From the NCBI GenBank assembly GCA_963767925.1, contig CAVYGB010000010.1, forward strand, positions 320,001-384,000: a stretch of 64,000 bases of DNA. Direction: 5' to 3'. The notes beneath the pieces were generated by a model. It made no database searches, was not told the origin of the DNA, and saw only the letters and a list, made by a program, of their open reading frames with translations. Shown here in pieces: positions 6,434 to 6,589 of this stretch. How positions within the stretch are numbered: position 1 is the stretch's first letter; every line of letters begins with the position of its first letter. This DNA is from an uncultured delta proteobacterium. Its GTDB lineage: Bacteria > Myxococcota_A > Polyangia > Fen-1088. The position numbers were made by a program, and so were the translations under genes.

Positions 6434-6589
6434 ATGGAGAGCAATGTGGCCGTGTTTCCGATGGAGTCCGCCGTTCAGGCCTTCGAGTCCGCGGTGCAGC
6501 CGTTCGAGTCGGCCGTGCAGCCGCTCGAGTCCGCGGTGCAGCCGTTCGAGTCGGCCGTGCAGCCGTTCGAATCGGCGGTGCGCGGATAG
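6434..6589 (+). CDS. Putative RiPP precursor peptide, 51 aa, with six tandem [MFL]ESAV(Q/R)x heptad repeats
   Basis: RBS AAGGAGA at 6421-6427, ATG 6434, TAG 6587-6589. Repeats differ mostly at synonymous positions in this frame. First gene of a YcaO operon. Confidence 0.85.
   Translation: MESNVAVFPMESAVQAFESAVQPFESAVQPLESAVQPFESAVQPFESAVRG

Follow-up and report, generated by a model that had tools for sequence, protein, structure and literature searches.

A stretch of 64,000 nucleotides (nt) from contig CAVYGB010000010.1 (positions 320,001 to 384,000 of the forward strand; hereafter, the window) carries a 51-codon open reading frame (ORF) whose predicted product consists almost entirely of six heptads that share an invariant Glu-Ser-Ala-Val block. 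This ORF opens a same-strand operon of eight genes and lies 94 nt upstream of seven genes for enzymes, one of which belongs to the YcaO family (Table 1). On balance, the peptide is probably the ribosomal substrate of the operon, acting either as a repetitive precursor of a ribosomally synthesized and posttranslationally modified peptide (RiPP) or as a scaffold. This assignment follows from two considerations: the operon needs a peptide substrate, and the 51-amino-acid (aa) ORF is the most coding-like candidate for it. The ORF and the anatomy of its repeats, the layout of the operon, and the families of its enzymes can be read directly from the DNA.

Repeat anatomy and coding potential of the 51-aa ORF

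The original prediction described a peptide of 51 aa made of six ESAV heptads and preceded by a strong ribosome-binding site, and both features are indeed present, the latter as the hexanucleotide AAGGAG. The peptide begins with the 9-residue stretch MESNVAVFP, followed by MESAVQA, FESAVQP, FESAVQP, LESAVQP, FESAVQP, and FESAVRG, so that the heptads conform to the pattern (M/F/L)ESAV(QP/QA/RG). Four of the units, as well as the N-terminal head, end in Pro, and the head itself looks like a degenerate repeat unit. The net charge of the peptide is approximately −6, and its 51 residues include 7 Ser but no Lys; as predicted, there are no Cys or Thr residues, and just 9 residues precede the repeats. 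The description of the peptide as unannotated is consistent with searches of a collection of 5.8 billion proteins and a library of 1.84 billion representative sequences, neither of which returned it. A weak NCBIfam match of the peptide to XseB (22 bits versus a cutoff of 94) was judged to be compositional.

At the DNA level, the 21-nt units start at positions 6461, 6482, 6503, 6524, 6545, and 6566. Tandem Repeats Finder reported the array at 6464 to 6581 with a period of 21 nt, 5.6 copies, 85% matches, 0% indels, and a score of 159, and also detected the 42-nt period (score 187, 89% matches). The sense frame is open throughout the array, and the stop codon lies directly 3′ of it. A stable hairpin found once in the genome separates the ORF from the first enzyme gene, an arrangement that is common for RiPP precursor and enzyme genes.

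Comparison of the six units reveals 11 variable columns out of 21, including all 7 third codon positions but just 2 of the 7 first and 2 of the 7 second positions. Within the ESAV block, variation affects all 4 third positions and is absent from the remaining 8. The chance of finding all 7 third positions among 11 variable columns is 0.0028, and the corresponding figure for the ESAV block is 0.0020; both are generous, as the units are related by duplication and the independent mutations are fewer than the columns. The synonymous alternatives listed in the original prediction (TCC/TCG for Ser, GCC/GCG for Ala, GTT/GTG for Val, and GAG/GAA for Glu) were all found, with ESAV itself invariant. Nonsynonymous changes are located at the edges of the units (M/F/L, QA, RG), mostly in the first and last ones. 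In the head, the conserved MES has Ser encoded by AGC, a member of another codon family than the TCC and TCG of the units, which fits selection on the protein. The same prediction had attributed this pattern to protein-level selection in the sense frame. The third-position pattern is real, but an ORF on the opposite strand (see below) uses the same third positions.

In the intergenic region from 6039 to 6690, the 51-aa ORF is the most coding-like of those that follow a Shine-Dalgarno sequence, with a third-position G+C content (GC3) of 0.90. The others are ORFs of 30 and 55 aa (GC3 of ∼0.7), two inner GTG starts of the sense frame, and the antisense ORF. The G+C values at the three codon positions of the sense ORF are 0.69, 0.42, and 0.90, i.e., GC1 > GC2 << GC3, which is the pattern of real genes in this genome, whereas the antisense ORF displays the GC1 < GC2 signature of a shadow frame. 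With 24 genes of the window as the training set and 51-codon windows as controls, a codon model scored coding over shadow frame at +5.5 nats for the sense and −3.3 nats for the antisense ORF. The 164 shadow-frame control windows had a mean of −23.4 and a maximum of +2.4, and windows from real genes had a mean of +17.8 (standard deviation, 7.3), with 3% of them at or below zero.

The YcaO protein and the other enzymes of the operon

The YcaO protein of the operon matches TIGR03604, the SagD-type cyclodehydratase model of the thiazole/oxazole-modified microcins (TOMMs), with 242.5 bits (cutoff, 219.25) and PF02624 with an E value of 6.4e-61. The closest solved relatives of its YcaO domain are LynD (E = 2.2e-20), TruD (3e-20), and MusD (4.6e-16), which align only with residues 375 to 737. 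The ExxER and ERD motifs, whose acidic residues we take to bind the nucleotide and Mg, are present as ECLERF and LERD, align with EAVERY and VERD of LynD, and show no change in P0003, a homologue described below. The N-terminal domain is conserved in P0003 as well, including its CxxC and HPSCP motifs, and does not align in hhalign with another fused YcaO protein of the same class. In a comparison of protein-language-model (Atlas) features, this domain scored 0.94 to 0.95 against clusters labeled “TOMM precursor leader peptide-binding” that contain PF21084, with 189 to 195 of the 256 features in common; this model-derived likeness can be regarded as a lead rather than a proof. A SagD-type YcaO domain with intact ATP-binding motifs, joined to an N-terminal domain with leader-binder-like features, is expected to act on a peptide substrate. 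There is no TfuA gene next to the YcaO gene and no TfuA domain in any of the 7 operon proteins. The genome encodes two further YcaO proteins, each beside TfuA (G000:C2:1949406-1950967 and G000:C2:534108-535612; L083, L084, L222, L223); these two YcaO-TfuA pairs on contig C2 are of the thioamide type.

The seven enzyme genes are tightly packed, with overlaps of 4, 17, 4, and 4 nt and gaps of 13 and 26 nt at their junctions, and four of them, coding for an M20-family aminoacylase, a DapA paralogue, an aryl-coenzyme A (CoA)-ligase-like enzyme, and a short-chain dehydrogenase/reductase (SDR), are located downstream of the YcaO gene and translationally coupled to it. The neighbors assumed in the original prediction, a class I methyltransferase, a nitroreductase-family flavoprotein, and YcaO, are all identified by family profiles, although the flavoprotein proved to be NfsA-like and not a SagB-type dehydrogenase. 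Its best Protein Data Bank (PDB) matches are NfsA, Frp, YcnD, and NfrA1; it carries an extra N-terminal stretch of ∼40 residues, belongs to the wider nitroreductase fold PF00881, and matches the NfsA model NF008033 below the cutoff (E = 3e-28). A six-frame search of the genome with the SagB model TIGR03605 produced just a subthreshold match on another contig.

The best PDB matches of the M20 enzyme are YxeP, ILL2 (an indole-3-acetic acid [IAA]-amino acid hydrolase), and an N-acyl-glutamine aminoacylase. The ligase is ∼44% identical to SgcD5-type aryl-acid ligases that are encoded beside anthranilate-synthase-like genes on plasmids of Streptomyces and Pseudomonas syringae. By class, M20 enzymes cleave aryl-acyl amino acids, the ligases activate aryl acids, the SDRs make aldehydes, and DapA-type enzymes condense pyruvate with amino-aldehydes. 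Taken by family, the downstream M20-ligase-SDR-DapA chain is suggestive of a coherent pathway for processing of a small fragment. A better dapA copy is found elsewhere on the same contig (G000:C10:184499-185344; 363.6 bits versus 269.3 for the operon copy). A duplicated housekeeping gene of the dapA type in a biosynthetic cluster can mark precursor supply or self-resistance. The methyltransferase and the ligase also have subthreshold matches to NCBIfam models named after neighboring Desulfovibrio genes (DVU_1556 methyltransferase, 28 bits, and DVU_1553 ligase, 113 bits), which may reflect either coincidence or a distant common cassette.

Table 1. Features of the repeat-peptide operon (coordinates refer to the window)
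Feature	Position	Strand	Remarks
Shine-Dalgarno-like AAGGAG	6421-6426	+	7 nt 5′ of the peptide ATG; unpaired in the predicted fold of 6410-6700
Peptide ORF, 51 codons, ATG start	6434-6589	+	Translation, MESNVAVFPMESAVQAFESAVQPFESAVQPLESAVQPFESAVQPFESAVRG
Six in-frame 21-nt tandem units	6461-6586	+	Higher-order 42-nt period
Rival antisense ORF	6475-6645 (56 aa, GTG 6645) or 6475-6723 (82 aa, GTG 6723)	−	Shares third positions with the sense ORF
GC-rich hairpin, ∼15 bp	6624-6665		GGGAGGAGGTGG...CCACCTCCTCCC; separates the peptide stop from the methyltransferase start
Class I S-adenosylmethionine-dependent methyltransferase, 266 aa	6684-7484	+	PF13649, E = 1.6e-15; best solved relative 2avn, a UbiE-related methyltransferase
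Nitroreductase-family flavoprotein, NfsA/Frp-like, 284 aa	7481-8335	+	PF00881; 4-nt overlap with the methyltransferase stop
Fused YcaO protein, 740 aa	8319-10541	+	N-terminal domain, 1-376; SagD-type YcaO domain, 377-737; PF02624, TIGR03604
M20 amidohydrolase/aminoacylase, 422 aa	10538-11806	+	TIGR01891, 228.6 bits, above cutoff; 4-nt overlap with the YcaO stop
DapA-family (class I aldolase) paralogue, 295 aa	11803-12690	+	TIGR00674, 269.6 bits, above cutoff; 4-nt overlap with the M20 stop
PaaK/SgcD5-like adenylate-forming (aryl-)CoA ligase, 483 aa	12704-14155	+	Family profile matches
Thioester-reductase-like SDR (NAD_binding_4), 401 aa	14182-15387	+	Last operon gene; PF07993, E = 9.3e-25; TIGR01746 below cutoff

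From these assignments we infer a pathway that would run from translation of the ORF through enzyme binding and modification of a particular residue to a small product. The N-terminal domain of YcaO would dock the peptide either by way of the MESNVAVFP head or by way of the hydrophobic-acidic F-E-S-A-V motif of the repeats, which may thus double as a recognition element. In each unit, the YcaO domain would activate the backbone amide of Glu with ATP, and the invariant Ser would close an oxazoline ring on the Glu carbonyl; it is the invariance of the Glu-Ser-Ala-Val block that points to Ser cyclization at this position. Oxidation by the flavoprotein may then turn the oxazoline into an oxazole, and a methyl group would be added by the methyltransferase. 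As the unit is present six times, with four copies ending in Pro, one translation product could give several copies of one short product, and the Pro-ending units and head would be suitable sites for a host peptidase that cleaves after Pro. The M20 aminoacylase, the DapA-type aldolase, the aryl-CoA-ligase-like enzyme, and the reductase probably trim or elaborate the released fragment.

At its 3′ end, the operon is bounded by convergent genes for a DUF1428 protein and a glyoxalase. Its G+C content (0.68 to 0.77) matches that of the flanks, so it could not be recognized as a foreign island by composition. The divergent gene upstream of the peptide ORF (5367 to 6038, minus strand) codes for a lipoprotein-like protein of 223 aa with a CSHCH motif of the heme-binding CxxCH type and has no family match. 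Further upstream, glgB (3118 to 5019) is split between two frames, running from 3118 onward, then at 4098 to 4877 in another frame, and then back. Relative to the copy from a same-genus genome (L068), it is 84% identical over 1,806 nt, with 26 gaps in 23 openings, and the frame breaks reflect either gene decay or single-base indel errors in this assembly of 13 contigs. Located between glgB and the gene for the 223-aa protein, a trinucleotide microsatellite (5006 to 5185) gives rise to ORFs of the (Ser-Cys)n type on either strand. A Cys-rich repeat protein (43 to 2148, plus strand; more than 700 aa) runs off the start of the window and contains dozens of CPxxxxC/QCC-type modules, with a weak match to Stig1 (PF04885).

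Objections and alternative readings

Several observations weigh against a role of the 51-aa peptide as the YcaO substrate. The peptide is atypical for azole RiPPs, as its leader has 9 residues at most, each heptad offers a single Ser, which follows a Glu, and Cys and Thr are missing. The flavoprotein had no match to TIGR03605 at E ≤ 0.01 and is not an azoline dehydrogenase of the SagB type, and residues 1 to 376 of the YcaO protein match no Pfam or NCBIfam model at E ≤ 10. The C terminus of this protein, LHRAPHFFT (also in P0003), aligns with NPTPM of LynD and is not PxPxP, the ending called canonical for azoline-forming cyclodehydratases in one preprint (10.1101/2025.07.11.664356). No endoprotease or exporter adjoins the operon, and the M20 enzyme is the sole peptidase among the proteins scanned from 2166 to 20254. 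On the coding side, the antisense frame accounts equally well for the third-position pattern, the score of +5.5 nats is in the low tail for real genes, and the repeats leave roughly seven independent codons. Given the single-base indels in glgB, small ORFs of this assembly deserve some caution, even if the peptide frame is kept by the repeat itself. Finally, no relatives of the peptide were found. A word-indexed search of the 5.8 billion proteins yielded none among 505 candidates and none of 28 to 90 aa. An exhaustive phmmer search of the 1.84 billion representatives gave 193 matches at E ≤ 0.001; the 12 inspected among the 150 listed were all unrelated heptad repeats. The original prediction had proposed a pattern search for similar small ORFs near YcaO genes; back-translated DNA-pattern scans turned up 59 genome loci and at least 119 metagenome loci, all unrelated tandem repeats and none with any of the seven operon proteins nearby.

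Such scans also bear on the possibility that the array acts as a DNA- or RNA-level element, such as a set of operators at intervals of two helical turns or a structured leader at the 5′ end of the operon, with the open frame being incidental in a genome of 72% G+C. In these scans, 21-nt tandem repeats that read “xESAVxx” in some frame were common noise, frequent in unrelated genomes, and accidental ORFs are abundant in the window, long ones being common at this G+C content. The missing homologues in both protein searches fit this possibility too, as do the 21-nt period, equal to two helical turns, the palindromes CCGCGG and CTCGAG in the units, and the predicted folding of the array on itself into a long imperfect hairpin (−141.4 kcal/mol for the 291-nt fold, z = −3.33). 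Nevertheless, we consider a nucleic acid element unlikely: variation is concentrated at every third base, a canonical Shine-Dalgarno sequence and ATG stand right before the array and a stop codon right after it, and the YcaO enzyme with its domain resembling a RiPP recognition element (RRE) needs a peptide substrate, for which there is no better candidate nearby. The hairpin/array region matched no Rfam family at the gathering score, and no sigma-70-like promoter that the repeats might overlap was scored between 5900 and 7000, in a scan that is weak for such an organism.

Alternatively, the ORF might be translated without serving as an enzyme substrate, for example, as a regulatory leader peptide that controls read-through of the downstream hairpin or as a small acidic repeat protein with another role. 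Attenuators have this layout, with a short ORF and then a very stable hairpin ahead of the biosynthetic genes, and this operon contains amino-acid-pathway-like genes, namely, those for the DapA paralogue and the M20 amidohydrolase. The 106-nt hairpin segment folds at −49.1 kcal/mol (z = −3.59), and none of 200 shuffled sequences was equally stable. However, this hairpin, which is present in a single copy in the genome, begins 35 nt 3′ of the peptide stop, has no U-tract on the plus strand, and was not scored as terminator-like, and no alternative antiterminator pairing is evident in the fold of 6410 to 6700. The peptide lacks Lys, and the pattern of third-position variation speaks for selection acting on the heptad as a whole, whereas attenuator leader peptides contain runs of the regulating amino acid and, to our knowledge, no tandemly duplicated heptads. 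We regard a regulatory or unrelated role of the peptide as quite improbable.

A further possibility retains the peptide as a substrate and changes the product. The peptide could be a sacrificial scaffold with six cassettes for making a small molecule instead of a peptide antibiotic, with a Glu-derived oxazol(in)e being elaborated further. The Glu-Ser pair of each heptad would be converted to this oxazol(in)e by YcaO and the NfsA-like flavoprotein, and the M20 enzyme, of the hippurate/IAA-amino-acid-hydrolase type, would cut the heteroaryl-carbonyl-Ala bond. The SgcD5-like ligase and the thioester-reductase-like SDR would then turn the freed carboxylate or the Glu side chain into an aldehyde, to be condensed with pyruvate by the DapA paralogue. 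Such a route has a rather low probability in our estimate; if it exists, it would lead from a RiPP to a small molecule, with amplification built into its stoichiometry and the labor divided among YcaO partners in a new way.

The least probable of the coding alternatives, and in our view a very unlikely one, is that the opposite strand encodes the true precursor, in which a 22-residue leader would precede a TADSNGC-type core. The antisense ORF of 56 or 82 aa reads VPATSSRLSTTLTPNDLRAYPR followed by TADSNGC, TADSNGC, TADSSGC, TADSNGC, and TADSKA, is rich in Cys, Thr, and Ser, the usual substrates of azole-forming YcaO enzymes, and carries ...LTPNDLRAYPR just before the repeats; its TGA stop is created by the single GTT codon of unit 1. 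This frame is open and shares its third positions with the sense ORF, so that the synonymous-looking variation fits it as well. It has an overall GC3 of 0.86, with GGAGGAGG located 8 nt 5′ of the GTG at 6645. Besides, a leader followed by a Cys/Ser/Thr core is nearer to the layout of classical TOMM precursors, and some TOMM precursors are described as carrying Gly-Cys or Cys-Ser repeats (PMC4603692). Against this stand the position of GTG 6645 in the loop, and of its GGAGGAGG in the stem, of the ∼15-bp GC-rich hairpin, with no in-frame start past the hairpin seen by eye, and the location of GTG 6723 inside the methyltransferase gene, where the ORF would overlap the methyltransferase start and has no Shine-Dalgarno sequence. 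Codons 8 to 22 of the antisense leader have G or C at 8 of 15 third positions (counted by eye), compared to 0.87 to 0.96 in the genes of the window, which adds to the shadow-frame signature and the negative codon-model score. Moreover, antisense transcription would run against the operon from within the methyltransferase gene. The start site, the occlusion by the hairpin, and the codon statistics thus make the sense frame several times more probable than the antisense one, which does not settle the matter. A dispersed repeat or a miniature inverted-repeat transposable element can be rejected, as the genome (9.3 Mb, 13 contigs) contains just one copy each of the repeat DNA and the hairpin.

Phyletic distribution and comparison with known systems

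Sequence searches indicate that the operon is very rare: the 5.8 billion proteins include one close YcaO relative, and the operon was not found in 88 genomes from its order. That relative, P0003, aligns over the full length with 63% identity in BLASTP (65% in the alignment) and is encoded on a JGI metagenome contig of 41,857 nt. A 79%-identical ligase, P0157, also comes from a JGI contig of 41,857 nt, from which we infer that the two are on the same contig and that YcaO and the ligase travel together. Another ligase homologue (P0158, 68% identical) is located on a separate 36,728-nt contig, from which no YcaO homologue surfaced. A 97%-identical ligase fragment of 333 aa (P0159/P0277) is found on a 35,491-nt ENA contig, so a near-identical strain has been assembled elsewhere; the YcaO search returned no matching copy.

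No close YcaO relative was found in 60 related genomes, where the best match, with 33% identity, was confined to the YcaO domain, and the ligase was likewise missing at E ≤ 1e-20, except for one match with 27% identity. Searched against 88 other genomes from this order, the N-terminal domain of YcaO gave three short low-complexity matches only. In a DNA search, a same-genus genome, G001 (86% complete, 870 contigs), matched glgB and a downstream gene, and it gave nothing for positions 6100 to 16000 of the window save weak matches to paralogues. Plasmids from PLSDB yielded only matches of ∼30% identity to the YcaO domain, and no second operon was confirmed in YcaO-based locus searches of genome, metagenome (with P0003 as the query), and viral contigs. 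An Atlas feature search with the peptide was uninformative (scores of ≤0.79). In the literature, “ESAVQP” retrieved one unrelated Ehrlichia paper, and this system was not described among the matches to queries on YcaO with repeats, nitroreductase with myxobacteria, and tandem repeats with oxazole.

If the peptide is the substrate, the operon would represent an undescribed branch of YcaO-dependent peptide chemistry, as it would combine a near-leaderless, acidic, Ser-only precursor of six units, an orphan N-terminal domain on a YcaO protein that lacks PxPxP, an NfsA-type flavoprotein in place of the usual dehydrogenase, and four coupled enzymes of the small-molecule type. It would also provide a defined substrate for testing what divergent YcaO enzymes do and, after thiovarsolin, a second example, with a different mechanism, of a single translation event that gives a tiny product in many copies. 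Given the rarity of the system, experiments on the present locus would be the only route to an answer.

The thiovarsolin pathway of Streptomyces varsoviensis (VarA, VarY, VarT, VarO) is described as using a precursor in which imperfect repeats, as many as five, are each regarded as a core; its very short products are N-acetylated APR tripeptides, the precursor gene is short, and no dedicated protease is reported to be encoded (PMC6511847). The present operon similarly combines a YcaO gene with a putative repeating precursor, of six heptads in this case, and has no dedicated protease. However, VarY works with TfuA to produce thioamides, whereas the YcaO protein described here is of the SagD type, carries a fused N-terminal domain, and has no TfuA partner. 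Besides, VarA has a recognizable leader, and its repeat sequence and the tailoring enzymes of that pathway are unrelated to those of the present operon.

The cyanobactin enzymes PatD, TruD, LynD, and MusD share the fused architecture (775 to 784 aa versus 740 aa here) and include the closest solved structures to the YcaO domain. Cyanobactin precursors of the PatE type can hold several cores, which often end in Pro or a heterocycle. In contrast to these systems, the N-terminal domain of the present YcaO could not be aligned, there is no full-length PatD-like homology, and the operon has no protease/macrocyclase of the PatA/PatG type (among the proteins from 2166 to 20254), long leader, evident recognition sequences, or PxPxP. 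Judging by its gene content, the organism does not appear to be a cyanobacterium.

Linear azol(in)e-containing peptides and other TOMMs, such as microcin B17, plantazolicin, and heterocycloanthracin, are described as relying on a cyclodehydratase of the C-D type, which is fused in about half of the TOMM clusters, and a flavoprotein, in some cases also on a methyltransferase, with the operon headed by a small gene for the precursor (PMC4603692), a layout that the present operon appears to share. The differences are the NfsA-like, not SagB-type, flavoprotein, the Ser-poor core without Cys or Thr, the almost missing leader, and the four small-molecule-type enzymes coupled downstream. Pantocin A (PaaP/PaaA) offers a parallel of another kind, a ribosomal peptide that is described as a mere source of a tiny Glu-based product, whose synthesis depends on an E1-like enzyme that uses ATP and whose release depends on unknown proteases; according to the same source, it has a single Glu-Glu-Asn core, no repeats, no YcaO, and other enzyme families (PMC12596934). 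Thus, while departing from each of these systems in several defining features, the operon is most like one with a TOMM/cyanobactin-type cyclodehydratase and a thiovarsolin-like repeating precursor.

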